64,000 nucleotides of DNA, taken from contig QPMI01000590.1 of the NCBI GenBank assembly GCA_004431415.1, positions 62,001 to 126,000 of the forward strand. Reading direction: 5' to 3'. This DNA is from Cyanophora paradoxa CCMP329. Lineage: Eukaryota; Plantae; Glaucophyta. Positions 5,335 through 28,100 of the stretch are shown here, one piece after another. The position numbers and the translations under genes are program-made. A model generated the notes under the pieces. That model worked only from the letters and a program-made list of their open reading frames with translations. It had not been told where the DNA came from and ran no database searches. Position 1 is the first letter of the stretch; each line of letters begins with the position of its first letter.

Positions 5335-7828
5335 CCCCGCCCCCACTCCTCCTCTCCGCCCCCGCCGCGAGCCCGCGCGCTGTATCCGTACACCGAATCT
5401 TTTGCATGCCGTTCGGGCTTCAATTTCTTCAATTCGGCGAAGCCCGTTTCAATGTGCCCTGTAGAGTCCATGTATGTTCCTACGACCGTCGCCGGACCCC
5501 TTTTCGCTCCCTTTCTCATTGCGGTACTGAGTTAGGCTAGCTTTCGCTCCCAAGCACCGAACCATTTCCAGAATGGCTCGCGAACCTTGTATTTATTTGC
5601 CCACCGTGCCATCGTGCCACGGTGATCGGCTTAAATTGGGTCGATTTGCCAGTGTTTTCCTTTTCGCTCTCTTGTCGAGTACAACATCCTCCAACGACAA
5701 CTGCGTAGAGCTGCAGTGCGTTCCCTTCGAATTTTCCTCCGTCACTCGGAATTGCGGACCAAATTTGCGGTCCTTGCAATTGCCAGGTACCGGGTTGCCG
5801 GAAGTGCCGTATAGATGCATTTGATGAATCGTCCGCAAGCGCATATTACATGATCGATCATTTCCAGCAGTAGACTGTGTGTAGTTACCGTATTTCGGTA
5901 TTATACGTGTAATTCAACAGTTTAACGGTTCCTTCGCGTTCCTTCGATCGATGATGAACGCTCGAGCCTCGAGCGCTCCCGATTTTTTGAAGGTTTTATT
6001 CAAGTGATCGCTGATGATTGATCACGAGGGAATTCGAAAAGGGTGCGAAGCGTGTTTTTTTTAGGTTCATCGGTACCTAACCTAAGCTCTTTAGAGGCTT
6101 CTTGGGGTCAAAGCGGCTTCGAATTCCGCTGCAGGCTGCAGCTTCCGGTACTAGCGGCGACCAGTGCTGAGTAAAATTTACTCCCCAAAAATTGGCCTGA
6201 AAACTTTCTGCAAGCTTTGGAAAATTATGTGCAAATATTTGCGCCATTGAAAACATTCCGAGCACCGCAAAAGCACTGTTTCTCGTAGCAAATAAGAGTC
6301 TAAACGAGAGATATAGGCTTTACAATGATACCTGTGCGTTTAGACTCAAAGTTAGCAAGCGTTATGTCTTGTTTTGGCCTTCGAATTCTTTTCAGGGTCG
6401 CCGAGAGGGGGGTACCCATCTTAAGGAAGCGACCTTCGCCCTCCTGACGCCCATATGCATGTAACTCTCTCACCTCTAAAACTATGTCAGAACCGAAGGG
6501 GATGCCGCGAGCAGCCGATAGACCTTGCTCGTAATTGCCGGTGTGGTGGGGTGGGGAGGGGGGGTCAAGTGCAAATTTACTGAAAGTTTTCTATGGTTGC
6601 CGGCGGGGATGAAAATTAACTGAAAGTTTGCAAGAAAATTTTCAACTGAAAGTTTGCCCAGCGCAAAGATAGGCAGCACTGGCGGCGACACTGCGGCTGA
6701 GTCTGCGGGTGGGCCTTGGCCATCATGGCATGGTGAGTTATTGGTGACCCGACCGGCGACGTCGACGTCGACTCTCTCGGCGAATTCGAATTCGAAGCCG
6801 GCCGATGCGTTCGGCCTAGGGCTGCGCACAGTCCACCTCAACCCCCACCCGGTCGGTGGGCCCGCTGACTGTTACCCGCCGGTGGCGGTCGGTGGAGGGG
6901 GGGTACTTGCTGCAGTGCGTGAAAATTGACAGGAAATTCGCTTAATTCTGCACAGCTTCAAGGCGCTACGCGCCTGCTCTTTGTTCCCAACTGTACATGT
7001 CTAAAGCAAGTGCTTTGGGGCGAGTTCAAGCCAGTTGTGGGGAGGCTGGGGGGTTGATGCCCAGGAGGGGGGTACGGGATATTGCGATCGATGGCGTCAG
7101 CTCCCTTGGGCTCCGTCGGATTGAAGAGCGCAGGAGCGCAGGAGAGCAGGAAGATGAACTAAGCAGGACTTTCCTGGCCTGGGTGCACGGAATATGTATC
7201 TTTCGCGCGCGAGAATATGAAATTTTCGCGAGCCTACCCCCCCAGAATTTTTATTTGTATGGTACCGGGCGTTGTATGGCGGTGGGCCGGACTTTCCACC
7301 CGGTCGGTCGGTGGGAGGCCGCCACTGCCACCGGCCGCCACCGGCCCAGCCCTAGTTCGGCCGACTCGATCAGCCTGCTGGCAGCTGAGGGCGAGCCTCG
7401 GAGCAGCGCGGGATGCTGCGCATGATCATCGGATGCGCGGCGCGCTGCCGCAGTGCGCGCAACGTCAACGCGGCTATCGCGATCGATATCGCGCGCCAGC
7501 ATTAGCCTGAGAGCCGCATCCCGGAGTTCCGTCGATCGTTTATGATCATCGCGCCGCCTCGCGCAGTCGCGCCTACAGCTAGGCCTAGCCGCTGAGCTCC
7601 CGAGCCCTCCCGAGACACGAGCAGGCTCGGAGCAGCCCGCGGCAGCCGCGCGCGACTTCGGCAAGCATCAATATTTACCGCTGACGCTGACGCACAGCGA
7701 CGCAAGCGCAACGTTGTCGAGGCGCCGGCGTCCGCAACCGCGCATGCTTTTTGCAGCTGAGCAGCTGCGGGTGACGTGCAAGGCGCCGCACGGCGCGCAT
7801 TCGCGCCACAACTCGTAGTTGGCACGCC

Positions 7829-10800
7829 ATGTTCGAACCCGACGAACAGCTAGCGCTGCAGCTCTCCGGCGATCCGTGGCGCGCGCCGAGCCCGCCATGG
7901 CCAGAACCGCGCATGGACGTCGACGGCTCCTCGCACGGCGAGGCCCTCCACCCTTTCGGGGCCGATCCAGGACTCGATGTGGGCGCGGAGACGGCGAACT
8001 GCAATCTGGAGGAGGCCTTCGAGCCGGCGCCGGCGGGCGCCGATCGCGACGCGCACGAGGGGATGGAACTCCCGACGTCGATGCAACTCGCCCTGGCCGA
8101 CGAAATCGACGCCAGCCAGTCGACGTCGCCCTCGCAGCCGCAGCCGCAGCCGGCGCCGGAGCAGCCGCCGGCCGAAGCGCCGCGGCCCGCGAGCTCGAGC
8201 TCCCATGCAGCCGCAGCCGCAGCTGGCCCCGGCGCCGGCCAGCCCTTCACCCTCCTCCTCTGCAAGAAAGCGCGGGTGCGCTGTCGATCACGAACGGATC
8301 TAGAAAGGGCGCCGGCGTGCGCGCGCGCGCGAGGGCGAGCGGGGCGGGGCGGCAGGACGCGTGGGGCGGGCCGCCGGAGCCGGTGGGCGCCTCGCAAAAG
8401 ACGGGCAAGTACGCAGAGGAGGTCGACCTCGTCCTCTACGCCTTCCGGTCCGCCCCCGCCCGGGCCCCCTCCCCGCCGGCGCCCTCCCTTTCTGAGGTTT
8501 TAAAAATAAAACTGCATTTCCCGCTCTCCGGCTGGGGAGCCGACGTGCGCTGGGGCGGGGCCAGGGAGTACCGCCTGCAGGCCCCGCCCGGCGGCCGCTC
8601 GTGGGCCGACGAGAGCGTTTGCGTGCGGCTGGCGTACGCCGGTGCCCCCCCCCCCCCCCCCCCCCCTCTTCCCCCTCCCCAGCCCCACCCCCCTTCCCAG
8701 CCCCACCCCAACCCCCTCGCCGGCTCACTGGCATGGGGGCCAGAGTCGGCGGCGGAGGTGCCGACGCCGCTGATGCGCTTCAAGAACGGGTACAAGGTCG
8801 GGCCGGCGGGTGACTCCGTGGTCCTGGCGTTCCGCGAGGACGGCCGTACCCCCGAGGGCTTCGGCTTCAGTCCGCCCCCCGCGCCACCACCCCCCCCCCC
8901 CTCCCCTCCCATGGCCCCCGCCGCTTGCCGGCGCTCCCCGCCGCCGGCGCTCACGCGCGCGCCGCAGGGCTCGAGATCGCAAGCTACCAGCTGCCGCGGC
9001 GCCGGCCAACCGTCTTCCGGTGCGCCTGCCGGCCGCCCGCGGCCGGATCCGCGGCGGCTGCGGGCCTCGGGGGATAGGCCAGAAGGCGAGGGGCGGGGTG
9101 CGCGCAGGCTGACTGTGGAGGCGGCTCTGGACGCGACGCCCCTCGCGGTCTACCTCGTCCACGTCATCAAGCGGTCCGCCCCCTCGCGCCGCCACCCCGG
9201 CCCCGGCCCGCCCCCGCCGCCGGCCGCCGCCCGAGCGCCAGCGTTGCTCGCAGGCCGCCGCAGCGGAAGGCGGCGCTGGAGGCGGTGTCAACGTCGATGC
9301 TTCCGGAGGGGTCGCCCCCGCCGCTGCTGCCGTCGCCGCGGGGCAAGGCGGCGAAGCGGGCGGCGGAGAGGCCGGCGGAGATGGGGGCGATGCGGGGCGG
9401 GGGCAGCGCGTCGGACTCGGAGGAGGGGACGACGCCGGAGACGCCCCCCGCGCTGGGCGAGCAGGGGCTCGAGACGGGCGATGCCGGCGGCGCGCCGTCC
9501 GCGCCAAGCGGGAGCCCGGGGCGCCCTCGCCCGTACGCGTCGCGCGGAAGGCGGGGACGGGGCTCGAGGCCGCCCGCGACGGCCACTCTCTGCCGCGCCC
9601 GCCGCCGCCGCACCCGCCGGGGCCGGGGGAGGCGGAGGGCGGCTTCGAGGAGGACCCCGAGATCGACGAGCTCGCCACCATGTTTCAGGGCCTGACCGGC
9701 TTCGAGCGGGAGGGGGCCGCGGGGGCGGCGAGGACGGGGGCGGCGGCGCCCGAGCGCGACGAGCTCGGACCCGACGGCGACGACGTGGAGCTCCTGAGCC
9801 GCATCCCCGAGCCGCCCCGGTCCGCCCCGCCCCCGCCCCCGCCCCCGCCCCTGTCCCGCAGGCCCCCTGAGCCGCACGCAGAATCGCCGCCGCCGGCCAG
9901 CCATCCAACTGGCAACCCCGCATCCGCTCGTTCGCGGGGAGCAGCCTGGCGCCGCCGTACCGGCACGGGAGCGACGCGGCGCGGGAGGAGGCGACCGTCT
10001 TCTTCCGCGCGGCGCTCGCGGCCGTGCGCTCCTGCGCGCAGGCGGCCGGCGTGAAGCACCCCGTGGCCGCGGGGGACCCGCCCTCCCCGCACGTCCTCCG
10101 CGCCTGCGAGGACCTGGCCACCGTGCGCCCGCGCAGGCGCCGCGCCCCCGTCTGCCCCGCCGGCCGGCGCGGCTGAGGCGGGGGCAGGCGCTGAGCTCGC
10201 CGGAGCTCTTCGACACGCCCCTCTTCTCCACGCTGGACGGTGCGCGCGCGTCGCGAGGCGCCTTCCGAGCTCTGCCTGCCGGGCCCGAGCGGCGAGGGCG
10301 GCGCACAGGCCGCTTCCGGGCGCGGGCGGCGCTGGAGGACCTGCGCCTCACCGGCTCCACCGCGCTGGCGCGCCGCCCGCCCCGCCGGCGCCCCGCCCGG
10401 CCCGCCGCCCCGCCCAACCGGCCGCCGCCTGCGCGTGCGTGTGCAGGTCCACGTGGTGACGGCGGCGTGGCTCAAGGCGATCCTCGCCGCCAGCGCCGAG
10501 GCCTGCGCGGCCAAGTGCGCATGCGCATGCGCCGACCCCGCCGACAGCCGCGACGGGCTTGACGCAGGCGGCGCTCTGCAGGGAGGACGCCGAGCTCGTC
10601 GCTTGGCACGTGTGGAACATCTTCGAAGTCTGCAACGGGGCCGTGCGCCCCCGCCCACCGGCCGCCACGCCGCCAGCGCGCCGCGCGCCGCCGACGAGAC
10701 GCGCGCAGTGGCGGTGGCTGCGGGCGCCCGACCTCGGCCCCGTCGACCCCGCGTACATGGCGGCTCTCTTCGACCGCGCCAACCTCCTGCTCAAGGCGCG

Positions 10801-12757
10801 CCCCCGCCCCGCCCTAGGCCTCCCTGCCCACGTCGGCGCGCCGCGCGCCGGCGACGGGGATCCGGATCCGGACGGGCGCCGACCGAAGGGGACGCGCAGC
10901 CGCACGTGGCGCGGGACGCGCTGCTGAGCGCCCGCGCGACCATCTGGCGCGCCCGCCTCATCCACGCCGTCCGCCCCCGCCCCGCCCCGCCCTGCCCCGT
11001 CCTGCCATGGCCAGGCCCCGCCCGAGCCGGCGCCGCTCCCGCGCAGTACGAGAACTGGCAGCTGCCCAGCGGGGCGGGCGCGGAGGCTGCCGCGGAGCTC
11101 TGTGCGCTGAACTCGCTTCCCGCGGCCCCGGCCGCGGACCTGGCGGCCTCGCTGACGTGGCTCCGCGGGGCGGGGCAGACTTCGAGGCGTGGAGCGTGCT
11201 GATCCGGGCGGGGCTGACGCCGTCGCGCGAGGAGGCGACGATCCTCTCGGACCTCACCTGGGTGCTGACCTTCGTGCCGGCCAAGTGGGACCTGTGCGGG
11301 CACTTCGCCTCCAAGATGTACTGGTTCTGCGGGGACGCCGTGGAGGACCGCTGGTCCGAGGCCGTCGCCATCACCAACATGGGTCCGCCCCATTTTCGCG
11401 CCGCGAAAGTTCTAAATCGATTTTCGCCGCGAAAATCTTCGAGCCTCACGCCGGGGCGAGCAGGGCTGGAGGCGAGCCTGCGGGGGCGGGCGCGGCTGGC
11501 GATCCGGCACTTCGCGCGCGGGGCGGAGCTGATCGAGGCGCTCTCTGAGGGGGCCCGCCCCGCCCTCAACTGCTGCCACGAGATGACTGCCCACTCCTGC
11601 TTCCACATCGGTCCGCCCCGCCACCGCGTCGCCCGCGGCCGCGCCTCACGGGCGGCTCCAGGCGACTTTCGGGGGGCGCTCAAGGTGCGGGCGGCTCGGC
11701 AGAGTCGGCGCCCCGCGCCGCCGGCCCCCGCCGCAGCTGACGCCCTCCGCGCGCGCCAGGCGGGGCGGCTCGCGGCGTACGCGCTCCACACCACGCACGG
11801 CTACTCGTACCAGGACACCGACATCTGGGCCGAGGCCCAGCGCACCATCGTGCGCCGCCGACCCCCGGCCCCGCTCCGGCCCTGCGCATGTGCCAGCGCC
11901 GATCGATCGCCCGCGCGCGGCCGGGCGCCCGCAGTGGGGGATCCACAACGCGCGGCAGAAACCCGGCGTCCTGTCGAGGGTCTTCACGCTGTGCGCGGCG
12001 CCCTCCCCGCCCCGCGCCAGCGCCAGGGCCGCGCGGGGCCTGAGCGGCGGGGGCGGCAGGAACGACTTCGCGATCGGGATCAAGTGGTCGCTGCGCGTGC
12101 TCAACCGCGTCGACATCTGCCCGAAGCCGCGCCTCACGTTCCTCGTCGCCCACTCCTACTACCGCGTCCGTCCCGCCCCGCACCCCGCACCCCGCCCGAC
12201 CCGCCCCTCGCCCGACCGGCGCCCGCGCCCCTCCGTGCAGCTCGGGTGCGTGTACCACCTGCTCGAGAAGCCGGCCAAGGCCGCCCCCTACCTCGAGAAG
12301 GCCGCCGCCCACTACGCCGCCTACCCCGTCCGCCCCCGGCCCCCCGCCCCCCGTCCCCCCCGCCACCACCGCCAGAAGCGGCTGAGAGCGGGGGCCGGCA
12401 GGCGTACTTCCCGCCCGAGGGCGGCCGCATGCGCCGCCTCGCAGAGCTGCTCGCCACCTGCCGCGGGGCCCTCCCGTGCTCCCCGCAGCGGCCCCTCGCG
12501 GCGCCGGGGCTGGTGGCAGGGCTGGCGGCGGGGAAGGTGGTGCCGGCGCCGGTGGCGGTGGCGGTGGCGGTGGCGGGGCGGGCTGGGGCGAGCGCCACGG
12601 CTCCCTCTCCTCCTCCACCGAGTCCTCGGAGGCCGAGCAGCTCCAGCGCCCCGCCCCGCGCCCCGGCCCCGGCCCCGGCCCCGCCGACCCCGCCTCCGCA
12701 CGCCCCGCCCGCCGCCCGCCCCCGTCCTGGTCCGTTCCCGCCGCCCACGCCCTCTAA
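7829..12757 (+). CDS. Uncharacterised protein with C-terminal TPR-like region, divergent family member 2 (multi-exon; 3' end uncertain)
   Basis: ATG at 7829 (MFEPDEQ), then many short GT/GC-AG introns. C-terminal exons AWSVLIRAGLTPSREEATILSDL and LTFLVAHSYYR/LGCVYHLLEKPAKAAPYLEKAAAHY..YFPPEGGRMRRLAELL align by eye with members 1 and 3. Confidence 0.6.
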
Positions 12758-14921
12758 AGGCACCTGCAGCTGGGCTCCTTTTTTGCGGGCCGGGGCACGC
12801 CGCCGAAGGGCCGGGGCCGCGCCCATCGCTCCGAATCCCCCGGGCCCCGCGCGAGCAGTTTTCGTCTCGTTCGCTGTCTCATTTATCATTTTTTTGTCCT
12901 TGCGGGTCAGCCGTAGTTTTGGGCTACACTGTGACACCTGCGAGAATATTGTTTTCCGAGTATTCCTCTTCAAGGCTGTTCGGCTTCTCGATATCTTCAT
13001 CAGCATGATCGATAGCATCCACCATGATCATCATCCGATCGCAACAATCGTGTACGTGCTATAATTTGTTTGAACAGTTTATCACAGCCTTCAGCTGGCA
13101 GGTACCGGTTCGACAGTACTAGTCTTACTGATTGACACAGTATCAATAGTATATATATGAAGCTAGCTAGCCCTTTAGCATAGCAGGTCTGTCTCAACGT
13201 TTGTATGTAGACGTAGGAGCTAGCCGCAGCCTAGTCTGAATACCGTAGCTCTTTTTTCAGAAGCTGTGCAGGAGGTCAACTAAGAGAACTATGGAGGTCA
13301 GGATGGGGGGGAGGGGTCGGGGAGGGGCCTATACATGTGCATGCACGCGTGGGAGCGCGGGGACTCGCAATATTATTTAATGGTGATCATGATGTTGATT
13401 TGCGTGCGTACAAGGCCTACGTGCACGTGGGCCCTCGCGCGCCGAGTTGCCGGCGCCTGATCTCGCTTCGAATTCTTTATTTGCAAAGGTGGACGTCGCA
13501 TTAATATTCATGATCATGATCATGCACCACGGCATTTTTATCAATGTTCTACGTACGCGTAAGCGTACGTGCCCTTTCGACCGATCACTGAGTAAACTAG
13601 AGATCCGAATTCGAAGGTGCTAGCTAGTTGCCGGCGCGGCCATGGCCATGGGTCGCTGACTTGAATTCGAATTCGAATTGCGACAAATTGAATATCCACC
13701 TGCTATCATAGCTATAGTACTAGTACTAGTTGGGGAAGGGAAAATCACTTCCCCTGTCCCTGTCCCTCGGGCCCAACCCTACCCCAAATCCCATTTCCCC
13801 GACCTCCTCAAAACCCGGGCCGCGCGGTACACCCTGAAAGCCCATCCCCAGGGGACCCCGAAACCGTGTCTCCCGGTCCCGTCCGACCAAAGGGTGATCC
13901 AGGAACAGGCACCAACACCCGGGACAAAAAGGGGTCCAGCGAGGCACATGGAGCAGATATACAGGCCGGGCCAGTTCGAGGTCAATGCTTGCATTATGCC
14001 CGACATTCCGTACTGCAAGAGCGAGGCCGGGCGCGAGCGCGGTCGCGTAGGAGGACGCCGCGCGTGCTAGCCAATCGCATTGGAGAGTGCGAACTTACCC
14101 TGCGAAACCTCTTAAGGTACCCCCGGCCGCATTCTCCCCGGGCGCCGCAGCTCGGCTTGGCTCAACAATGGTTACGCCTCTCGCGCGCGCGGCAGCTTGC
14201 TGTGGCTCAGCGGCTAGCCGCGCCAGCCGCGCACGCTTCACCCGCGCCAACCGCGACCCGACGCAATTGCACAAGCCGGCCGCAAGCCGCCCGCACTTGG
14301 CCGGCTATGCCACTTGCAACAAGCCGACGCCCGCGCGGCGCGCGGAGCCCCCGCGCGCGCGATGCGCATGCCTGCTGCAGCCGGCCGCGGCGCCGCTGAT
14401 CATGAGCTGGCCCGCTGCGCGCTTTTGATCATGAGCGGAACGTGAGCTTGAGCAGCGTCCCGCGCCCGCGCCCAGATCGCGCGGAGGCCTAGGCCAGCCC
14501 CTAGCTATATAGCAACGCCGTGACGCACGTGCACCCGCAGCACATGCGCACTCGTGCACCCGCCACGCCTCACGCGCGCGAAGGCCGCGGGGCATGCGCA
14601 GCCTGGCAGGAGCTCGAGCACGTCCATATGCATGGCCAGACAAGGTTCCCTCCTCTTCCCAAGGCCCGCGCCTTACATAGCTATAGCTAGCTCGCTAGGC
14701 CCTGATCATGAAGCCTTCCTTTAAGAGGACAGCTCGCCTCGATCGCGAGGACAGCCGCTGAGCTCGCCTGGCGTGGCCAGCCTCGGCCGGAGCCGCCCCG
14801 GCGCCGCGGCGGCTCGCCGGCGCCCGGCCACGTGCACCGCGCGCGCGCCTTCTTAAGCTTAAGCGCTAACTTAAGTCCCTGCAGCTCCCCTCTGCATCTA
14901 GATCTTGGATTCGCCGAGGTT

Positions 14922-15477
14922 AGCGCATTATGCGCGGAGCGTAGAATAAGATTTGTGCGAGCCGTCAGTGCCCCAGCCGAGACTCGAAGGAATTATTATT
15001 TTTTCGCCGCACGAACCGCGGGTTCGACTCCGTAGCGCGGTCAAGGCCAAAAATAAATTCTCGCACCTTTGCATGCGAGGCCGCCGGCCAGAAGGCCGCG
15101 AAAAAAGGCGGCGGGCTGACAAGTAACAGCTCTCGGCTCCTAGACCGCCTAAGTGGGTACTAGCCTGATGAGCTAGCCTTCAGACAACGGCGAGACTTTC
15201 CGCAAGGAGGCCCTCTAAGAGCCTTGCGACGAAAAGTCCTTATAATAAAGAGCCCAGCACCGGCATCTAGGAGCCTGCCCCCATCGGCTGAGAGCCCGTG
15301 CCACTAGCTAAGAGCTGGCACCCACAGCAGAGAGCTCAGCCGCCTAAGAGCTCGGCGCAAAATTTGCGAGCTGCGCTTCCGAGAGAAGAGAGCATTTGCT
15401 CTGAGAAATCTAGCTGTCTTGCTAGAAGGCAGCACCTTAGACGTGCTGCACCTTAGTCTGCGCGAATCGCCTCGCGC
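14922..15477 (+). repeat. Split direct repeat A1
   Basis: 556 bp matching 23527-24082; one c/g difference (15005 vs 23610). Confidence 0.95.
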
Positions 15478-16322
15478 AGCAGCAGCATTCGATGTCTGCC
15501 CAGAAGCAGACCAAACGTGGCGCTAGCGCTATTGCTAGCGCCGACCAAGAAGCCGGAGTGCTGACGGAAGACGAGGCAGTCCGGCAGCCGCTGAGCATCA
15601 GCGACGCCTCAATTCGTGATTTCGGCACAGTAGCCATCCGGCGTTCTTATGCAGATTCTGAGCAGTACCGCCTGCCAGACAAGGCGGACAACGGCGTGCC
15701 GCTGGCCGCGTCCTTCGCCATTTCAGGTCAGTGGTGCCCTCCGGGGCACGTGCAGAGTAGGTGGCCCGCAGGTCGTCTGCAATTCCGGCACCTCTCTCCG
15801 CAACCACGACTCGAAGATGGCAAAGGACGCGACGCGGACCGCCGCATAGGCCAACGGCGAACATCTCAGTCCGAGTACGCGTTTTCGCCCGTTTATGCGC
15901 CATCGCGAAAAGACTGCACATCGCCGGCCCTCGTCCTTAATCCTGCCCGTGAACTCGCACATTTTTCACCTGTTGCGCGCAGTTCCTCGGGCACCGATCG
16001 TTTTCAACGGTCGGAATGCCGGTCGGCTCCGATTCCCAACACGAACAGAGCCAGGAAGCCTCCCACCCCACGCCCTCGTGTGGCGCGCCGCCTGCGCCGT
16101 GTCACTGATGGGAAAGCGTTGTCGTGGGGGACTTCGGGGGACATTAGCCCCCTATACATAAAAAGGCGCGGGCTCGGCCTTCTAAATTCGCCGCCGCCCA
16201 GCAGCCCGTGCGTAAATTCTCCTCCTTGGCGCGTACGTGCGTGGCGCGTGACCTCCAATCGGTCGTCGCAGCCTGCCGACCTCGCAGCCTCGCGCTCGCG
16301 CGCGCCTTCGGCGCTGCAGCGC

Positions 16323-19300
16323 ATGCGCAGCACATTGGAGACTGACCGCCTCCACTTAGGGGATCTCGATATAGATCCGCACCCCGAGGCGCAAAAAGCG
16401 TTGACCTTGTCGCGCGCAGATGACGCGATCAAGCTCATGAAATCTCCGGAGCTGCTCGAAGGGGCCGTCACCCAGTTCCAGCTCTCCCACGGCCGGCCGC
16501 TCACAGTGGGCCGTGTCGCCCCGACTCGCAACCAAGTCGTCTTCTGCCAAATCTTTCCTCTGGACATGAAGAAACATGGCGACACCGTCCTGTTTGTGCG
16601 CTCACAGAGCCCCTCTCCGTTACCTGCCGAGCTGCAGCTGACTGCAGCTGAACGCAGCATTCGATCACGGCGCGTGAACCGGCCCCGGACAGTGGCCTGC
16701 AGCGCTTCTACTTCATGCGTACAGTGGGCGCCCCGTTCCATATCGTCACGGACGCGGAGGACCCGAGTGCCTGTGTGGCGCCTCACGAGGGCGAACCTTT
16801 CCGGTGCACCTGCGAACGCCCCCTGCTCGTTGCGGTTGGAACCGACAACCAATTTTTCGAGCAGGAGCTTCCACGTTCCTGACGGCGCACCCAACGAGCA
16901 CCAGCTCCACCCTTGCGAGCTGGTCGGACTGATTTCGGCTGGCATCGCCTACTTGGTCAACGGCTTCCCGGGCGACACGAAGCGCCGCTCGGCAGCAGAG
17001 CTTGCCAAGCTGGTGATCCCGGAGCAGCGCCCATTCATGGCTCCGATCCTGACCTGGCTTGGGGAACTGGTACCACCCCCTCACACGCCCGCACGGCGTA
17101 GCAACGGCCAGGGCCGCTCACGAATAAACAGATCACGCGGCGCCTGGCCGGTACGGAGGGCGAAGCCCTTCGGAGCTACGCAGCATGCCCCACGGCGGCC
17201 TGGGCGGTGGCATTCGACGGTCTTGATGCCTTGGACCCCAGTGCCGACGCCGACTTCGGGATTCCCGAATCTGCGGTGCGGAGCCAATTGCAATTGCAAA
17301 ACGCTCAACTTTATTTTCGAACTGAATTTCGATCATACTCAGGACGCAGCGGCTGTCATCCAGGCGATGGCGACGCCGCCCGTCACTGAGCAACGGCTCA
17401 AAGGCGCCGCCGATCTGATCTTCCTGACCATCACGAGCGGCGCCAAGGAAGCCCGTGCCGCGAGGCAATCTGCCGTCGCAGCCCGTGCCGGTGGTGCGAT
17501 TTTGGATTGGGAAACGTGGATTTTTCTAGCGAAATTTGCTGCGGTGTTGCTGAAACCCGACAATTTTGCAGACAAGCAATCCGCGGACGCGGCCAAGGCC
17601 CCCGAGACTGCCAAGTCCGGGAAGGCTCAGAAGGCTCCCAAGACCACCAAGGCCGCGAAGGCGCCGAAGGCAAAGCCGGGGCCCAAGCCCGGCGCCAACA
17701 AGCGCAAGGAGCCACCAGCGGCGGAGCAGCCGATGGATGAGGACATGGAGGATGTCGAGGAGCCGAGCGTGGAGCAGCAGCCGGCCCCACAGCGCCGCCC
17801 GCTGTTCCCAGCCGCCCGGCGCCCTTTCCGCGTGGATGGGCTCCCTGCCATCCCGCGTAAGCAGGGGGCCCCCCCGTCGGGCCCCCGCCCTCTTTTTGGC
17901 GACGCCAACCGCCGGGGCGCGCCGGTGCGTTCTCGCCCCCGCGCCTTCCCGCAAAACGCCACGCAACCAACTTCGAGTCAGGTTGCGGCGGCGCGGTCCT
18001 CAGCCCCGCGCGAAACCGCCCGCCCGAATTCGAACGCGGCGGGTGGGAACTCAAGCATGGGAGGCAACATGGGTGGCGGTGCGCCCCCACCCCCTGAGCG
18101 CCCCTGCCGCCTTCCTCGCAGTCACGAACTTGACGCCCCACCAGCTTTTGCGAGCGACTCCTGGCAGCAGGAGGCGTGGGAGGAAGTCCCCCACGACGAG
18201 GACGACCCCATCGAGGAGGACGGCGAGGCGGAGGATATGTACGGCCCCGAGCCTTTCGGGGCCCACGGCCACGGCCAGCCCTGGGGCGGGCCGGTGCAGC
18301 CCTCGGCCCCTTGGCCGGCCCCGGCGCCGCAGCTCAACTTCCAGGGCGGCGCCAGCTCCGCCCCGTTCGCCCCGTCCTTCTCGTGGCCGTTCCAGGCGAC
18401 GGCCCCCACGGCGCCCAACTCCAGCCCCGCGGCTGACGCCACGCGCGCCCAGCACGGCCTGCCCTCAACGGCGGTCTCCGGCGAACAGCTGCGGCTGGTG
18501 CTCGAGCAGTTCGCCACCTCCTACCAGCACACAGTGCAGTGCTTCAAGGACGGCCGCATCGGCACCAAGCTGGTGCCCTCCGACAACCCTGCTGTCGCTG
18601 ACTGGGCAAAGGGCGGTGCAGCGATCGGTACCCAGCTGCTGGACGCCGGCTTCAGCACGGTGCTGCTGCTCATGCAGCAGGCCTTTGGCAGCGGCTCCTA
18701 CGCCGCCCTCCTCGCTGATCTGGAGGCGCGTGACGTGATCATGCAACGGCTGCGCGCCGCCGGCGCCCCCCACGACCTGCTGTCCTTCATGGCGACTCAC
18801 TTCGCCAATCTCGAGGCGACCCACATCGGGCTCCGCACGGCCTCCCGCGGCATCGTCGGCCTTCGCGCCCTTCTTCTCCCCACCGCGCCCTCGGCCCTCA
18901 ACATCGACCGCGCGGCGGCCAGCCCTGAGCTTCTGCGCTCACGGGGTTCAGTACGCGATTCCGATGGAGCCCCCGCCCCCTGGCAATTGGCTGATTTCCC
19001 AACCCCGGCAGGCCTCAGAGCTGCTGAAGGAGTCGGCGGGCTACGGCCTCGCGGGCGCACAGCACTGGCAGCGGCTCGAGGGAAGCGAGGCAGCCCTCAA
19101 GGACGCCCGCAAGGCGACGCCCACGCTGGTGTCTTCGCCAGCGGACTTCGTGGCCAGCACCACGACCGGTTCGCGCCCTTCGAAGTTATAGAATCTGCTT
19201 TGTCTGACGGATGCCTGAATGTGCAGCATCTGCAGCCGCCGCCGTCGCCTCGTACCCTCACAGCCAGCCCGCGGCCGCTGCCTGGGGCGCTGGCCCCTTC

Positions 19301-19558
19301 GGCTGGGCCCCCGGGGGCCAGGTGTACTCGGGCGGCCATCATTATCCCCCGGGACCCCCCTTCTACCCGGGGCAGCCCGGCGCTGGCCAACAGCAGGCCG
19401 GCGCCGGTGGCTTCCGCTTCCGCGGACGACGCGGAGGAGGCCCCGGACCTCGTGGTCCGGGCGCCGGCGGCGCCGGCACTCAGCAGCACGGCGGCGGCCC
19501 CGGCCGCGGCGCTGGCCCGGCCCACGGAACTGGCACCCAAGCCCCGCGGGGTGGCTGA
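16323..19558 (+). CDS. ORF1 (gag-like) of the YR retrotransposon, interrupted by about 9 predicted spliceosomal introns
   Basis: TATA-like ctatacataaaa at ~16153 and ATG at 16323 (MRSTLETD). Predicted GT-AG introns: 16596-16657, 16804-16864, 17070-17131, 17276-17342, 17494-17571, 17925-17981, 18079-18144, ~18855-18951 (donor uncertain), 19169-19226. The spliced product ends in a G/P/Q- and RGG-rich tail at TGA 19556-19558. The gag identity is inferred from position only. Confidence 0.6.
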
Positions 19559-19703
19559 GGAGGCCCCCGCTGCAGCTCGGCGCCCTTCGAGGCCGCCTAG
19601 GGCCCCTGCCGACCTCCCTTCCCGCAGATTTGCGGTTCGAAACATAGAGTCGTCGGCTCCTGCGGCAGATGTAGGCGCCCAGACCTGGGATTTAAATACA
19701 TCA

Positions 19704-21809
19704 ATGATTTGGAACCCGCTGCCTGCCGCTGCCTTGCCGAGAGCACCGATGGCGCCTCCGTCGCATAACGAATTTGCATTATTACGAGAATTTGTGAGAG
19801 GGCACGGTGATCCCGGCCCCTACAATTTTGCAAGGCATGAGGCCAACTTCCGGGCGGGGCAACTCACGCGTTTTGCTAACGCGTGGAGAGCTCATTTCCG
19901 CGCGGTCGGCACCGAGCTGCCATCGTGGATAGGACTTGTCATCCGCACTGGCTTGCGCCTGCCCCTCCAGGCATCTCCCGACAGGCCCGTTGCGTCCATT
20001 GACGACCTGCCCGAGTCGGCGGCCGAGCGGCCTCGCCCCTCGTGCTTTAAAACGCCCGAGCACACCATCTTTGTCGACCGCGAAGTCGACGCCATGGTGA
20101 GACTCGGCGTGGTGAGACTTGCGACAATAGAGGACGTCCTCCGCACGCGACATGTCTGTGCTCTTCATGTAGTTGATAAGAGCGGTCCAGACAAGTTTCG
20201 GTTGTGTTTAGACGCAACGCCTGTGAACGGATACATTACTTGCAAGCCGTTCCAGTACCAGTCGCTCGACCAGGTGGCCCCGCTGCTCACGCCGGGCTGC
20301 TGGATGGTCAAGTACGATTTGCGCAAAGGCTACTACCACCTTGCGCTGCACCCGGACACGCAACGCCTGCTGACTTTTCGTTGGCGCGGCCGTCTGTACG
20401 TGTACCAAGCGCTGTGCTTCGGCGTGAACGTCGCTTGCCGCGTCTTCACAAAGCTCATGCGCGCCTTCGCAAAATACTGGGCCGCTTTAGGTGTGCGTCT
20501 GTGCACCTACATCGACGACGGGCTTTTCATCTGCCCCTCTCGAGAAGCTGCTGAGCTAGTCTCGCAGCATCTGCGTTGGCTTGCCCCGCAGCTCGGACTG
20601 GTGTTTTCGTCGAAGTCCGATTTTACGCCCACTCAAGTGACAGAGTATCTCGGGCTCGAAATCGACACCCGCCCGGAGCGCGGTGTGTTCACTGTCACCC
20701 CAAGGAAAGTCGCAAAGATTACGGCCCTCATAGATGAGACCCTCTCGGCCCCGGCGGCCTCGATTCGCGCACTCCAGCGCCTTGCCGGCAAGCTCATCGC
20801 GTTGCGCATGGCCTTCCCGGCGGCCCGCCTCATGACCCGGCCTGTTTTTGCAGCGCTGGCGGCCGCCGAGACCAGGGGCCTCACCCCGTTCGATCCCTCT
20901 GCGGTACCTGTCCAAGGCGCACTGAAGGAAGCCCTCGTGTGGGTGCAGCGGGTCCTGCCGACTCGGCCTCATCATCCCATCTGGGAGCCCCTGCGATTTT
21001 TCAGGCTGTTCACGGACGCCTCCGGTTTCGGCTTTGCGGCCTTCTTGGATTGTGGAGAAGGTGCCCAACCTCGCGACGAGCGTCAGGGAGACGCTTGGTC
21101 CACATGGGGCACTTTCCCTCCGGAGCTGCGTTCGACAGCCATTCCAAAAGTTTCGAGTAACGAGCGCGAACTTCGCGCCGTACTGGCCGCCGCGCGCGAC
21201 CTTTTCCCCCGGCTGCCACAGGGCGCCAAGGTCTTTCTGCGCTCGGATAACTCGACGACCGTAGCCGCAGTGGGAAAAGGCAGCTCCGCCCCGCACTTAT
21301 TCGAGTTGTGCGTCGAGCTTTGGCACCGCTGCGCCGAGCTCAACATTATCCTTTGCGCTCGGCACATTCCCGGCATACGGAACTGTTGGGCAGACGCCGC
21401 CTCGCGTGAGCTTTGCCCGCGACTCCACCGTGAACTTTTCGTGGCCGCCTGCCGGGCAGCAGGATGCAAGCTCATACATGAGCACGTCGCCGACGACGAC
21501 AGCACCTGGCTCGCGGCCACCCGCCCCGACCGCACGGCTCTCTTAACGGTCGACTCGCGCCTCCGTGCGCGACTGATCGCGTCATTAGCGTTGCAACCGC
21601 CCACGGCGCCGCTGGCCCTTCTCTTGCCCTGGCAGCCCAGCACAACTTGGGCGGTGGCGCTAGCGGACCTCTGGCGGGACCCCGCAGTTCAGGCGGCGTC
21701 ACTCCGTCCGCGGCCAGCGCATGCCTTCTTCGCGAAACCGAAGCAGGCAAACTGCATCGGCCTCGGGCGCTGCCCGTGGCCTTTCGTACTGACGTGGTGG
21801 CAGGCGTAA
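19704..21809 (+). CDS. Reverse transcriptase + RNase H + degenerate methyltransferase-like tail (pol) of the YR retrotransposon
   Basis: DIRS-type RT motifs KFRLCLD, KYDLRKGYYH, LCFG..FTK, YIDD, EYLG. RNase H motifs LFTDASGFG, RELRAV, SDNST, HIPGIRNCWADAASR. The frame is continuous with the upstream 15492-21809 ORF; the true start is uncertain. Confidence 0.92.
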   Translation: MIWNPLPAAALPRAPMAPPSHNEFALLREFVRGHGDPGPYNFARHEANFRAGQLTRFANAWRAHFRAVGTELPSWIGLVIRTGLRLPLQASPDRPVASIDDLPESAAERPRPSCFKTPEHTIFVDREVDAMVRLGVVRLATIEDVLRTRHVCALHVVDKSGPDKFRLCLDATPVNGYITCKPFQYQSLDQVAPLLTPGCWMVKYDLRKGYYHLALHPDTQRLLTFRWRGRLYVYQALCFGVNVACRVFTKLMRAFAKYWAALGVRLCTYIDDGLFICPSREAAELVSQHLRWLAPQLGLVFSSKSDFTPTQVTEYLGLEIDTRPERGVFTVTPRKVAKITALIDETLSAPAASIRALQRLAGKLIALRMAFPAARLMTRPVFAALAAAETRGLTPFDPSAVPVQGALKEALVWVQRVLPTRPHHPIWEPLRFFRLFTDASGFGFAAFLDCGEGAQPRDERQGDAWSTWGTFPPELRSTAIPKVSSNERELRAVLAAARDLFPRLPQGAKVFLRSDNSTTVAAVGKGSSAPHLFELCVELWHRCAELNIILCARHIPGIRNCWADAASRELCPRLHRELFVAACRAAGCKLIHEHVADDDSTWLAATRPDRTALLTVDSRLRARLIASLALQPPTAPLALLLPWQPSTTWAVALADLWRDPAVQAASLRPRPAHAFFAKPKQANCIGLGRCPWPFVLTWWQA

Positions 21810-22004
21810 CGTTAAACGCCGACCACCGCCTACACGCAATATATATATATATAGATGCAGATATATATATAACTCGATCGTATACATCCGCAAAATTATA
21901 TATGTAGTCTTGAAGACGTCGACGCGGAGCACGTGGCTGATGTGCACGGTCGTCTCCCGCGCGCAGGCCCGCCGGCACCACGCGCACGACGCACGGCTCG
22001 CCTC

Positions 22005-22997
22005 ATGATCAGTGATGCCCTTGCGGAACTCGCGCGCTGGCGGGAGGCGGCCTGGGCCGCCCGCACCAACCAAGCAGCGACCCGCGTCTGGCGACGTTAC
22101 CTCGACTTCTTGGCAACGACGCCGGGCAAGTGGCACCCCGCCGACGAGAAAGCGGTCCTGCTCTTCCTGGCGTCCGCGGCCCATTCAAGGAACGAGGCGA
22201 CTGGACAGCCTCTGGCCCCCAGCACGATCCAGGGCATGGCGGCTCACATCTGGCGCATTCTCAAGGCCGAGCGCCTCATTGACCCCAACGAGCCCCGTTC
22301 TTGGGAGTACCTGCGCGCGATCCGGGGCATGACTCGGGCGCTGGGTCGCCCCCCGGCGCAAAAGCGACCCCTCGGGCTATCCCAGCTCCTCTCCTGGACC
22401 AACACGGCCGAGTTCCAGGCCCTGGCCCCTTTTGACAGGCTGTCGCGCCTGGCGCTAATGTCGCTTGGAATCAGCGGCCTCCTCCGGATCTCCGAGGTTG
22501 CCGCTCTTCGTCAGGGCGACGTCGTTCCCGTCCGATCGTCAAGCGGGCGAGTGCTTCTGCGTGTCACGGTTGCACGCTCAAAGACGGACCAAGTTGGTCA
22601 CGGCGAGCACATCCTGGTCGCGTCAGCGCCAGCCGCGGGCCGAGCCTGCCCGGTTCGGGCGACAGCAACGTACGTCAACGCGGTCAACCGCATTTACGGC
22701 CCCCGCCCGCCTTCGGCTCCATTTTTTCTGCGCGGCCCCCCGGGTGCCGCTGGAAGCTACACGGACGATCTCGGCCGCGCCATCATTAAGCAGTGCGCTT
22801 GTGACCTCGGGCTTGATCCGGATGACTACTCGGGTCATAGCCTTCGACGCGGCGGCGCCCGTTCGGCGGCGCGAGGTGGCGCCTCCGCCACATGGCTGCG
22901 CCGCCACGGCCGCTGGGCGCTGACCTCAATGGTCCCTCAGCGCTATGTTGACGACTACACTCTCGCAATTGAGACCGAGGGCGTTGCTTTCGCCTAG
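22005..22997 (+). CDS. Tyrosine recombinase of the YR retrotransposon
   Basis: Catalytic residues present: GLLRISE (R), SKTDQ (K), GHSLRRGGA (HxxR), HGRW (W), RYV (Y). First in-frame ATG is at 22005; the ORF is open from 21933. Confidence 0.95.
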   Translation: MISDALAELARWREAAWAARTNQAATRVWRRYLDFLATTPGKWHPADEKAVLLFLASAAHSRNEATGQPLAPSTIQGMAAHIWRILKAERLIDPNEPRSWEYLRAIRGMTRALGRPPAQKRPLGLSQLLSWTNTAEFQALAPFDRLSRLALMSLGISGLLRISEVAALRQGDVVPVRSSSGRVLLRVTVARSKTDQVGHGEHILVASAPAAGRACPVRATATYVNAVNRIYGPRPPSAPFFLRGPPGAAGSYTDDLGRAIIKQCACDLGLDPDDYSGHSLRRGGARSAARGGASATWLRRHGRWALTSMVPQRYVDDYTLAIETEGVAFA

Positions 22998-23081
22998 GGA
23001 TCTTGTGCTTTCAATGTACATGACTCACAATCGAACTTGTATATTGATCGAGCTGCTGCTGCTTGAGACCTGGCTTGTGTT

Positions 23082-23527
23082 TGGTGTGTGCCCGGCGGGC
23101 GAAGCCCGCCGGCCCCACCTTCTAATTTCCCTAAGCCTTGATCGCTGCACTTACCAGCGATCGCTGTACCCCTCTTCCCGCGACGGTACCCCGATCACGG
23201 GAGCAGGACTAGCCTGAGGTTCCCGCCTGACGGCACGAACCTGGGGGTACAGCATTTTCTCCCAACTCGCAGTAGCTCGTTAGAAAAAAGCACTTGATGT
23301 CGACCCCTGGGGAAGCATCAGCCGGTATCCTCGGCTTGAGAGGACTGATAAACCGTGATTTCAACACGGTGGAAGGCCCTCTCCGGTTCGCGTCGCGAAC
23401 CGTGCTCCCCAACTGCAAAGTAGACAGAAACGCAGTTGATGGTAGAGAAAAGTGAAATATTCTAGTGTGTTCAAATAATCTAGTACATCTCGAGTACGGC
23501 GAAAAAGCACGTGAGGCCACGCATAAA
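23082..23527 (+). repeat. Split direct repeat B1
   Basis: 446 bp repeated at 24282-24727 (offset 1200); starts with the hairpin ccggcgggc-gaa-gcccgccgg. Confidence 0.95.
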
Positions 23528-24082
23528 GCGCATTATGCGCGGAGCGTAGAATAAGATTTGTGCGAGCCGTCAGTGCCCCAGCCGAGACTCGAAGGAATTA
23601 TTATTTTTTGGCCGCACGAACCGCGGGTTCGACTCCGTAGCGCGGTCAAGGCCAAAAATAAATTCTCGCACCTTTGCATGCGAGGCCGCCGGCCAGAAGG
23701 CCGCGAAAAAAGGCGGCGGGCTGACAAGTAACAGCTCTCGGCTCCTAGACCGCCTAAGTGGGTACTAGCCTGATGAGCTAGCCTTCAGACAACGGCGAGA
23801 CTTTCCGCAAGGAGGCCCTCTAAGAGCCTTGCGACGAAAAGTCCTTATAATAAAGAGCCCAGCACCGGCATCTAGGAGCCTGCCCCCATCGGCTGAGAGC
23901 CCGTGCCACTAGCTAAGAGCTGGCACCCACAGCAGAGAGCTCAGCCGCCTAAGAGCTCGGCGCAAAATTTGCGAGCTGCGCTTCCGAGAGAAGAGAGCAT
24001 TTGCTCTGAGAAATCTAGCTGTCTTGCTAGAAGGCAGCACCTTAGACGTGCTGCACCTTAGTCTGCGCGAATCGCCTCGCGC
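23527..24082 (+). repeat. Split direct repeat A2
   Basis: Copy of 14922-15477, directly abutting B1 at the junction gcataaa|gcgcatt. Confidence 0.95.
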
Positions 24083-24281
24083 CCACCCACCCACACCTCT
24101 AGAGATCGAGCCCCATTGGAGTTCGCTCCAGGGGACAGGGCAGGAGGATATGGCAAAGTCAAACTCGTTTTTCGCGACGACCTGTTTTCAAAACGGCCGC
24201 GCTTCGAGATTTACACTCCTTTCTTAAGGATAGTACTTTGCTGGCATTCTGAACCTGGCCCCCACGTTCAGTCATGCGGTG

Positions 24282-24727
24282 TGGTGTGTGCCCGGCGGGC
24301 GAAGCCCGCCGGCCCCACCTTCTAATTTCCCTAAGCCTTGATCGCTGCACTTACCAGCGATCGCTGTACCCCTCTTCCCGCGACGGTACCCCGATCACGG
24401 GAGCAGGACTAGCCTGAGGTTCCCGCCTGACGGCACGAACCTGGGGGTACAGCATTTTCTCCCAACTCGCAGTAGCTCGTTAGAAAAAAGCACTTGATGT
24501 CGACCCCTGGGGAAGCATCAGCCGGTATCCTCGGCTTGAGAGGACTGATAAACCGTGATTTCAACACGGTGGAAGGCCCTCTCCGGTTCGCGTCGCGAAC
24601 CGTGCTCCCCAACTGCAAAGTAGACAGAAACGCAGTTGATGGTAGAGAAAAGTGAAATATTCTAGTGTGTTCAAATAATCTAGTACATCTCGAGTACGGC
24701 GAAAAAGCACGTGAGGCCACGCATAAA
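24282..24727 (+). repeat. Split direct repeat B2 (right terminus of the element)
   Basis: Copy of 23082-23527. Confidence 0.95.
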
Positions 24728-25189: not shown

Positions 25190-28100
25190 CTAGCCGGCCT
25201 GGATCTCGCTGACGCTGGAGCTGGCCATGGGGTGGACGGCGCCGGTGCCGGCGCCGGCGCGGGCGAGGCCGAAGAGGCGGGAGAAGAGGCCCGGGGCGCG
25301 GGCGGGGCGGGAGGCGCGGAGCTCGGCGAGGGCGGCGACGATGCGGGAGATGCGGGGGCAGTCGGCGGGGAAGGCCTCGGGGAAGCGCGTCCGGTAGATC
25401 TGCGCCGCCGTCGCCAAGTGGCCCGCCGCCTTCGCCTCCTTCCCTGCGCCCCGCCCGCCCCACCCGCGTCAGCGGCCGCGATCAGCGCTCCTCGGCCCCA
25501 GCCCCGCTGAATTGATCTCGCTCTGCTGTCATCAGCGGTGCGGCGGGGCGCACGGAGGGTAAGGTAAGTCTCGCCGAGCCAGAAGTGGTAGTGGGCCGTC
25601 AGCGGCGTCCGCATCTCCGGGTCGTTCCTCTGCGAACGAAGCGAGGCTCGCGGTCGCGGGCGGGGCGCCGGCGGGGGCGGGGCGCCGGCGCACGACGGAG
25701 GCGGCGAGGCCGAGGATGGTCCATTGGAGGATCGTCTTCGGCTTCACCATGTCCGAGTGCGTGCTGTGCGCCCCTCAGCAGAGCTCCACGGCGTCTATTA
25801 TTTAATGCCCGCTCAAAACATGTATATATATATACATTGCATGCTATAAAAACCAGATTTCAATATCCTTAGCACAGGATGATCTGATCATGAGTCTGCA
25901 CTTGCAATTGTCGGGCTCTCTAGATTTGGAGCGCGGCTCACGTGCATCTACTAATATGACCGATATCGCTAGCGCTGGGGGCCGAGGAGGGGCGGGCGGC
26001 GGGGCGCACTTGCGGACGGAGAGGTTGGCGTTGACGTCGTTCTCGGGCAGCGCGGGGTCCCCCAGCGCGACCAGCTGCACCGCACCGCAGCGCCCGCTCG
26101 GTCGGTCCCTCGGTCCCTCCCGCGCGCCCGGCGGGCACGGGCACCTGCTGCACGACCGCCTGCCAGACGCGCCTCGCATCCGCCAGCCGCGAGGGGCCCG
26201 CCATGATCAGGTTGAAGAACTGCCGCGGCGAGGCGCTCAATGTCGAGCGGGGCGCCGGGCGGCCGCGGGGCCGGCGCACGTGCATCGTCCGCATCCGAAT
26301 GGTGACCGTCCTGCACGCGCCGACGGCATCGAATCAGACGGGACGGACAGGCGAGCTCGCGTGCAGGGGGACGGGGACTCGAAGGGGGCGGACGTGTAGC
26401 CGGGCCCGAGCTGCTCGAGGATGGCGAGGGCGCGCTCCGAGGCCGCGATCGCCCCCTGCAGGTCCCCCCGCCACCGGCACGCCCCCACTGCCCGCCCCCG
26501 CCCCGCCCCGGCCCCCGCGATCAGCTGCAGGTCACGAGCAGTTGCAAGGACCCGAGCGGAAGGGAATTCGCGTCGAGGAATTTAACGGCGCGCATGCGCA
26601 AAACTTTTTCGAGATTGTCCACACTCTAAAGCTCGCGATCGAGAGAGTGTGGGCGTCGGTCGTCCTAGGCCTAGGCGTGCTGGAGCTCGAGGCCGTCCTG
26701 TGGCGCGCGCACCGCGGGTGAAGAGAGCGAGGTACTGCGAGTAGCGCGCCTCGGGGCTCTCCCCCTCCAGGTGGTACGCCTTCTCCGCCACTGCCCCCGG
26801 CCCGCCGATCGCAAAAGTCGATCAGAAACAACGAGGAGGTCGTCGCAAGGAGTGCATGCGCAGGCGCTCGGGATCTAGATTAGGCCTGCGGCAGTGGGGC
26901 GCCGCACCGTGCATCGCGGAGCGCGTCTGCCCCGTGGTGACTGCGGGTTCAGAGGGCGTGAGCGCGCGTGCCGGCCGGGGGCGGCGCCGACGGGAGGGGC
27001 CGGCGGGGCCGCGGGGCCGCCGGGGCGCACAGAGGAGCTCGGTTAGGGGGGGGATGAGGGCCGCCTCGAGGGCCGAGGGGGTCATCTGCCGCTTCACGAG
27101 CTCCGCCCACGCCTGCGCCCCGGCCCCGCACGAGCGTTGACGTCGAGCGCTCATTGCATATTCGCGCGGGAGAGGGGCCGGCGGGCCTCGAAGTAGAGCC
27201 CGATGGCGTCCATCTTCTTCTCGTACTGCTCCCCCGGCGTCGGCCCCGGCCGGAGCGCTGGGCGGGGCGGGGCGGTGGCGGGGCGGGCGGACGCGGTCGA
27301 GGGTCATGGCGCAGAAGAGGAGGGCCTTGGGGCGGAGGGCGCCCTCCGCCGCCCCCAGCTCCCCGCCCAGCAGCTGCACGCGCCCCACCAGCTGCGCCCC
27401 GCCCCGAAGCTCGGCGACGCTCTCACGGCCCCGGCCCGCAGCCCAACGCCGCGCCGCCGAGCTTCTTCGCGCACGCACGCGGGCGGCGAGGTCCAGCGGA
27501 GGGCGAAGAGGTCGTCGGCCGCGCGCGCCCGCTCCGCCGTGAACGCCTGCCCGCCCCGCCCGCCGCCCCGCGTCGGCCCCCAGCCCCCCGGGCAGGCCGC
27601 CGCGAGGCGCAGGGGCGAATTTTGAAGAAGCGCGGTAAGAAGCTCTTTATATAGCTAGACGATTTAAAGGCATCCTGGAAATCTTAGAGGAGACGAGCTC
27701 GTTGAGCTGGGGCGCGTGGAGCGCGGACCAGGACGAGGGCGGTGGCGTGGTCGACCATGAGCTCCGCCTCGGCCGGCGTCCACGCGGCCGGCGGGGAGCG
27801 CTGCAGGGCCGCCACCAGCGCCCGCACCACGCCCTGCGCCTGCCCCGCCCTCCCCCTCGCCCTCGGGAGCTCGAGGGGGCCGGCGGCCGGGGCGCACCAT
27901 CCCGGGCTTCCCGACGGCGCGCATCGCGGCGAGCATGGCGCGGACGGCCGTGCGCCCCGCGAACGTGCGGAAGAGGCTCGTGCCGAGCAGCCGCGCGTCA
28001 GAGAGCGCCTGCGGCCGTCATGACCAGGCCGCCCTCGAATTTAATTTCGGCAATTGCAAGCGCCAGAGGGCGCACCGCCGCGAGCCGCTCGGCGAGCTCC

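Follow-up and report, generated by a model that had tools for sequence, protein, structure and literature searches.

Retroelements are expected to lose introns, and such loss underlies the standard retrotransposition reporter. How, then, could a retrotransposon keep about nine short introns in a single gene? The question is raised by a stretch of 64,000 nucleotides (nt) from the glaucophyte Cyanophora paradoxa CCMP329 (assembly GCA_004431415.1, contig QPMI01000590.1, positions 62,001 to 126,000 of the forward strand), which we call the window and whose own numbering we use. Comparing the window with itself revealed a 9.8-kb intact split-direct-repeat tyrosine-recombinase (YR) retrotransposon at 14922-24727 on the plus strand. 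A sequence-only reading had proposed that its first open reading frame (ORF1, a putative gag) is split by spliceosomal introns, that the element packages unspliced RNA, and that intron retention may set the ratio of Gag to Gag-Pol. Here, we report that the conservation of ORF1 follows the spliced frames and that the unspliced frame is nevertheless held open well beyond what the last of these proposals needs.

Conservation of ORF1 follows the spliced frames

The nine segments proposed as introns could all be located (Table 1). They measure 57-78 nt, and their excision gives a protein of 887 amino acids (aa) that runs from the ATG at 16323 to the stop at 19558, introns 8 and 9 diverting translation into the terminal G/Q/RGG tail as had been described. 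Set against the ends of U2 spliceosomal introns, all nine are GT-AG, their lengths compare with a host mean of 86 nt, and branch-like motifs, said to occur often, are present in six (CT[GCA]A[CATG], 8-40 nt from the acceptor). The cited part of PMC6704402 gives Cyanophora paradoxa genes a mean of 9.2 introns of 86 nt, in models made by BRAKER1/AUGUSTUS. The public, host-trained gene model of the locus has eight of the nine introns with the same ends, and its protein, P0001, which is labelled Cyanophora paradoxa, equals the locus letter for letter save one junction residue. It omits intron 6, which also has no branch motif. Under a host splice-site model of our own, crude and unvalidated and with several acceptors that look wrong, six of the nine donors rank within the top 21 of 305 GT sites.

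A search of the unspliced frame against 1.84 billion representative sequences returned a single match (E 1.6e-23), the 881-aa paralog P0002, itself a Cyanophora gene model. This protein is about 30% identical and scores 305 bits on the spliced model versus 195 on the unspliced frame. Of 300 shuffles, 2, 0, and 0 equalled or exceeded the scores of exons 2, 4, and 9 in the spliced frame, and 199, 124, and 93 did so in the long unspliced frame; translated in the long frame, not one of the nine introns stands out from its shuffles (48-298 of 300). Exons 4 and 9 were also matched by tblastn in off frames, the exon-9 match beginning at 19012, the first base past the intron-8 acceptor. Introns 1+2 and 3+4 move the frame out and back, and the two peptides that the sequence-only reading had quoted from between them both lie in the +2 frame. 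Had conservation followed only the 2105-aa frame, splicing would be in doubt; we found the opposite.

We then scanned deletions blind to splice motifs at three of the nine junctions (introns 1, 3, and 8). Of 1203 deletions tried for intron 8, its GT-AG pair is one of three that share the best score, and intron 1 comes second among 736. For intron 3, the full paralog model gives rank 487 of 1146, which improves to 14 without that model's 20-aa extra segment. This segment (aa 230-249) and another (aa 128-158) both start with V and end with Q, which is the reading expected of unspliced in-frame GT..CAG introns. Removing both raises the score from 199 to 261, and the alignment then closes in register with introns 2 and 3; singly, they rank 329 and 78 of 4146 deletions. 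It is thus suggestive, from the protein alone, that P0002 shares these two intron positions. Altogether, removing the segments restores the conserved protein at introns 1-4 and 8 and weakly at 9, while introns 5-7, being in frame, are uninformative. The presence of eight or nine real spliceosomal introns in ORF1 is, hence, supported indirectly.

An intron of about 97 nt had also been claimed. None fits: of the 37 GT-AG pairs of 95-99 nt in the region, four of 97-98 nt were tried against the paralog and scored 746, 231, 114, and 65 versus 812. A weak 97-nt GT-AG pair at 19551-19647 would, if spliced, take out the Gag stop and fuse the tail to the pol frame; it is unlikely to be an intron because there is an earlier AG at 19627.

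The predicted protein of the spliced ORF1 has a conserved N-domain, a low-complexity middle, a conserved predicted helical domain, and the tail. Relatives are few: two word searches gave 1 and 2 matches, metagenome contigs gave none, and the ORF1 of the related element P0009 has no detectable relation to it. An AlphaFold model of the helical domain, built on two alignment rows, has a mean predicted local distance difference test score of 48.9, and the ESM Atlas offers eukaryote clusters at 0.95 (137-149 of 256 features) and 0.88, as leads only. Matches to TAL repeats in PDB were rejected as spurious low-complexity matches.

The unspliced frame is open from the left repeat to the end of pol

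The claim that the unspliced frame is free of stops was borne out, over 15441-21809. Within the introns, stops by frame number 0/7/6, none of 13 falling in the long frame; from the end of repeat A1 to 16322 they number 0/8/9 (none of 17), and from the Gag stop to 19748 they number 0/4/1 (none of 5). In all non-coding stretches together, 0 of 35 stops lie in the long frame ((2/3)^35 = 7e-7). The repeats, as controls, have stops by frame of 15/7/3 (A1) and 8/8/6 (B1). A null that shuffles introns and resamples synonymous codons of the off-frame exons, and so keeps local composition, expects 9.6 stops where none is seen (P 2e-5). The avoidance is found in the 5' block of introns 1-7 with exons 2 and 4 (P ~0.002), in the 3' block from intron 8 to 19703 (P 0.009), and in the 845 nt upstream of the gag ATG (P ~0.001). 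The long frame is non-randomly open.

What is this openness for? The long frame shows no conservation over the introns and off-frame exons, and its upstream codons have no third-position bias (third-position GC content 0.64/0.65/0.61 versus 0.74/0.65/0.38 in exon 1); because of this, it looks as if the frame is held open, and not for its amino acids. Since the openness reaches back to the ATG at 15492, selection likely acts on a fully unspliced genomic RNA and not only on a switch at introns 8 and 9.

A young element of the order DIRS

The element has the order A1-ORFs-B1-A2-B2, that is, the split direct repeats of Ngaro-like elements. PAT-like elements share such repeats; the methyltransferase domain was not detected with Pfam or profiles. 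Reverse transcriptase (RT) and RNase H in one ORF, together with a tyrosine recombinase in place of a DDE integrase, place it in the order DIRS, and a family search found no integrase or protease in the element. The RT matches PF00078 (E 3e-10), and its YIDD and the catalytic acidic residues of RNase H align with five relatives without any intron-sized insertion in pol; the Pfam RNase H family gave no match of its own there. The recombinase matches PF00589 at E 0.001, below the curated cut-off, and is 39-48% identical to the relatives' recombinases. The ends show a 1-nt overlap only, at the B1/A2 junction, with no visible target duplication.

In the class model, as the cited part of PMC6681497 gives it, repeats become identical at insertion. 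Since A1/A2 and B1/B2 differ by one base each, the insertion would be recent, and we are likely dealing with a young YR retrotransposon of Ngaro-like or PAT-like plan. Of the 125 differences to sister families, 40 were listed, and 32 of these 40 are at third codon positions. Near-identical repeats, an intact RT, and this third-position excess together make it likely that the introns have recently been carried through reverse transcription, for which the template would have been unspliced. The proposal of real introns copied from unspliced RNA is, to this extent, upheld by indirect evidence, namely the paralog's frames and the terminal repeats.

The sequencing runs bear on copies and transcripts. 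All sampled words of the element occur in 20 of 24 listed runs, each a possible source, and none of the 20 is recorded as RNA. One contig of run X1, which may be the source of the assembly, is identical over 16150-21800 (5651 nt) with 0 gaps, and an assembly error behind the frame structure was therefore rejected. The depth of the element in X1, 35 versus 38 for an unrelated 21.9-kb contig, suggests a single copy, depth being a poor measure of copies. No GT-AG joint of an intron-less copy was found in X1, one of 20 DNA runs with the element. Contigs of X22 and X23, two of the three runs guessed to be RNA, had only low-complexity matches below 45 nt among the matches listed and, having no host-gene control, are no evidence either way. 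Run X21, of unknown kind, holds one identical 165-nt piece of the element.

Other observations concern the element and its kin. At least four other YR retrotransposon families, 41-60% identical in pol, occur in the same species (P0003-P0011), and the depth of two of them in X1 is about 2- and 4.5-fold that of the element. The 129-aa segment after RNase H (21420-21806) is conserved in the Cyanophora relatives and has 0 Pfam matches; the methyltransferase-like tail of P0012 was not among the 8 best of 501 sequences for its profile, and a degenerate domain is possible. An 11-mer at 15021-15031 and 23626-23636, in both copies of repeat A, resembles a tRNA B-box (0.14 expected in the window), possibly a TFIIIC site or tRNA remnant. 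ARAGORN found no tRNA gene, and Rfam gave a single chance-level match. The pol profile found two short distant metagenome loci, without gag, and none among viral loci. Metagenome contig L001, at 639-2614, has short RT, RNase H, and methyltransferase-like matches across frames, as in a degenerate or interrupted YR element.

Table 1. Features of the element, with positions in the window
Feature	Position	Strand	Properties and evidence
Repeat A1	14922..15477	+	1 difference versus A2 in 556 nt
Long frame, 2105 aa, from ATG 15492 to pol end	15492..21809	+	First AUG past the A1 TATA-like box
Candidate 5' untranslated region intron, 64 nt, GTGCGT..CGCAG	16208..16271	+	Donor rank 9 of 305
ORF1 (putative gag), 10 exons, predicted 887 aa	16323..19558	+	Spliced model, paralog P0002
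Intron 1, 62 nt, phase 0	16596..16657	+	Motif-blind scan rank 2 of 736; in public gene model
Intron 2, 61 nt, phase 2	16804..16864	+	Public gene model; in-register extra V..Q segment in paralog
Intron 3, 62 nt, phase 0	17070..17131	+	Public gene model; in-register extra V..Q segment in paralog
Intron 4, 67 nt, phase 0, GC 0.40	17276..17342	+	Public gene model
Intron 5, 78 nt, in frame, phase 1, GC 0.45	17494..17571	+	Public gene model; frame evidence impossible
Intron 6, 57 nt, in frame; weakest call	17925..17981	+	Donor rank 8 of 305
Intron 7, 66 nt, in frame, phase 1	18079..18144	+	Public gene model, host-model splice-site ranks
Intron 8, 61 nt, phase 0; best supported	18951..19011	+	Tied top of 1203 motif-blind deletions
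Intron 9, 58 nt, phase 1, opens the G/Q/RGG tail exon	19169..19226	+	Public gene model
TATA-like TTTAAATA, 58 nt 5' of ATG 19749, possible internal pol promoter	19691..19698	+	
pol: RT (YIDD), RNase H, 129-aa conserved C-terminal segment; intron-free	19749..21809	+	
TA-rich gap and phase-1 acceptor at 21966, in frame with recombinase	21838..21966	+	Acceptor rank 25 of 380
Tyrosine recombinase ORF, 330 aa, intron-free	22005..22997	+	R / HxxR / H-W / Y motifs present
Repeat B1	23079..23527	+	1 difference versus B2 in 449 nt
Repeat A2	23527..24082	+	Window self-comparison
Repeat B2, right end of the element	24279..24727	+	Window self-comparison

A proposed pair of RNAs from one locus

We suggest, as the probable though far from certain arrangement, that the element makes two RNAs: a spliced one for the 887-aa Gag and a fully unspliced, stop-free genomic RNA from which new insertions are made. 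This second RNA would begin within repeat A1, which has a TATA-like TATAATAA at 15241. Its first AUG would be that of 15492, opening a frame of 2105 codons through every intron to the end of pol. A second TATA-like box (16153..16164, plus strand), upstream of the gag ATG, is a predicted internal promoter for the gag RNA. Selection probably holds the long frame clear of stops, so that the intron-retaining RNA would evade nonsense-mediated decay and could supply Pol in cis. The introns may originally have been stop-free and a multiple of three in length, as the candidates of P0002 (93 and 60 nt) appear to be, with compensating indels producing the present pairs (62+61 and 62+67) afterwards. The anatomy, the open frame with its avoidance of stops, and the paralog's conservation in the spliced frames are observed; the start sites, the splicing, the escape from decay, and a block to splicing on the genomic RNA are what we infer.

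How could this block work? By analogy with the marker intron of DIRS-1, our guess would be that Gag binding prevents the splicing of genomic RNA. An all-or-none switch without a Rev-like gene can be imagined, in which the genomic RNA keeps every intron as a decay-proof 2105-codon frame, frame-shifting introns survive only as compensating pairs, and Gag, with its RGG tail, blocks the splicing of packaged RNA. This more elaborate version is possible but rather doubtful.

Alternative explanations

Several results weigh against the reading of ORF1 as a spliced gene with a selectively open genomic RNA. No spliced read or transcript was seen, the contigs compared from runs guessed to be RNA not covering the element; young transposable elements of Cyanophora are methylated and likely repressed, according to the cited part of PMC12344493. 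The predictor behind the public gene model also excised clearly coding RT and RNase H, here and in relatives, and its agreement is thus weak support. Acceptors rank only 33-342 of 380 under our crude model, so that the claimed likeness to host introns holds for most donors and fails at the acceptors. The conservation case rests on one paralog, itself an automated model; exon 5 shows no conservation (297 of 300 shuffles), and that of the low-complexity tail exon is weak (7 of 300, versus 21 of 300 in the long frame). Concerning the stops, the six frame-shifting introns alone give P 0.026, GC-rich host regions of the window, richer in GC than the element, are open for up to 827 codons, and the 277 codons upstream could simply extend Gag at its N terminus, in which case their lack of stops would no longer count.

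Could the segments not be introns at all? The 2105-aa frame would then be the true polyprotein, and the switches would be frameshift mutations, ribosomal frameshifts, or artefacts of the predictor. The openness of that frame, the acceptor context unlike that of our host model, and the lack of RNA support for splicing agree with this. Yet conservation leaves the long frame three times, each over a non-conserved spacer of about 60 nt between GT and AG, the exon-9 match begins at the very first base after an acceptor, and mutational frameshifts would break the long frame rather than keep it. We find this explanation very improbable. Equally hard to sustain is the idea that the element now moves as DNA, by recombinase excision and re-insertion as Cryptons do, and keeps its introns without any unspliced RNA genome. 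The intact recombinase and the apparently single copy would suit it, but RT and RNase H are intact as well, most of the listed differences to sister families are at third positions, each repeat is nearly identical to its partner, and stop avoidance is left without a reason.

The harder question is where Pol comes from. In the retention proposal of the sequence-only reading, introns 1-7 are spliced and the retained introns 8 and 9 give a 1677-aa Gag-Pol that sets the Gag:Pol ratio. The fusion product is indeed open and contains RT; 32 of the 512 retention patterns reach RT, all keeping 8 and 9, and stops are avoided from intron 8 to 19703. In plant Ty1/copia elements, Gag comes from spliced and Pol from unspliced RNA (cited part of PMC5580714). 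Retention of this kind is possible but is not singled out by the data: it leaves unexplained the stop avoidance in introns 1-7, in exons 2 and 4, and in the 845 nt upstream. The fusion would also lose the most conserved motif, in exon 9, and copying an RNA without introns 1-7 would give intron-less copies, none of which was seen in X1 (where contigs drop rare variants). As an explanation of the whole structure, we regard it as decidedly unlikely.

Pol and the recombinase could instead have RNAs of their own, made from internal TATA-like promoters or by splicing from a gag donor to another acceptor, at 19668 to give Gag-Pol or at 21966 to give Gag-recombinase; escape from decay would then be the only function of the long frame. 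From A1 to B1, plus-strand TATA-like matches form only three clusters, each just 5' of an ORF start (16153, 19691, and 21838-21906), a pattern that was noticed post hoc. Pol models of relatives (P0003/P0005) begin near Met 19749, and models P0006 and P0008 have no Met just before the recombinase homology. The phase-1 donors of introns 5, 7, and 9 join 19668 in frame (1019-1490 aa with RT) and also 21966 (649-1120 aa with YR). Against this, acceptor 19668 ranks a weak 125 of 380, and one phase match in three would arise by chance. We consider this account a real rival, though an unlikely one as stated. It is compatible with most of the two-RNA explanation and differs on the source of Pol; the expression of Pol and recombinase could be explained by any of retention, alternative acceptors, and internal TATA-like promoters. 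A slippery-like TTTAAAT at 19691 was rejected as a link between Gag and Pol since it lies 3' of the Gag stop.

Other features of the window

Identical 271-nt direct repeats (51073-51343 and 63074-63344) lie 12 kb apart with no stop-free stretch above 314 codons between them; they possibly belong to a young non-autonomous or intron-rich element. A 149-nt unit is repeated in arrays at 30785-36650, a region that also has TA runs and higher-order duplications, among them a 743-nt copy at 99.9%. An inverted GC-rich pair at 3066-4876 and 25392-27867, about 75-94% similar, likely represents paralogous host genes.

Significance and relation to known systems

To keep about nine short introns in one gene, an element from a family old enough for its proteins to be only 30% identical needs a route by which fully unspliced RNA can enter reverse transcription, and the stop-free unspliced frame would be the sequence footprint of this need. 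A single locus makes testable how the order DIRS expresses its three ORFs and controls their proportions, and by what means RNA with retained introns avoids decay. It also calls for caution, since gag regions described as "frameshifted, degenerate" in such elements may be spliced and intact.

In its plan, the element resembles Ngaro-like and PAT-like YR retrotransposons of the order DIRS, for which the cited parts of the literature describe the A1-ORFs-B1-A2-B2 structure, the succession of ORF1, RT-RNase H, and tyrosine recombinase, the absence of a DDE integrase or protease, and an ORF1 whose 3' end overlaps the pol frame (PMC8547959, PMC3783388, PMC6681497, PMC3266345, PMC13465315). It differs from them in an ORF1 split by eight or nine introns and in a pol frame open back to the left repeat. 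The word "intron" has no occurrence in the main text of three YR surveys (PMC3783388, PMC6681497, PMC3266345), and our literature search, whose scope excluded subscription reviews, Repbase entries, and supplements, turned up neither a YR retrotransposon with a multi-intron gag nor any account of these elements from Cyanophora.

Other retroelements offer partial parallels, as far as the cited parts of each source describe them. Penelope-like elements, including Chlamys, also keep introns through retrotransposition (PMC8557442), but they are of another class, with a GIY-YIG endonuclease, their introns are mostly in the 5' untranslated region, and most of their ORFs are uninterrupted (PMC8557442). 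DIRS-1 of Dictyostelium is a YR retrotransposon that can reverse-transcribe RNA with an unspliced marker intron near the 5' end (PMC7192593); that intron is engineered, and the element has inverted repeats (PMC7192593). Closest in logic to the two-RNA explanation are plant Ty1/copia elements such as EVD, in which the host spliceosome provides a spliced RNA for Gag and the unspliced RNA is both genome and Pol message (PMC5580714). In that case, however, there is one alternatively spliced intron, around the protease, and the unspliced frame is a true Gag-Pol (PMC5580714), whereas the element of Cyanophora has nine short introns inside gag and an unspliced frame that scrambles three conserved exons.

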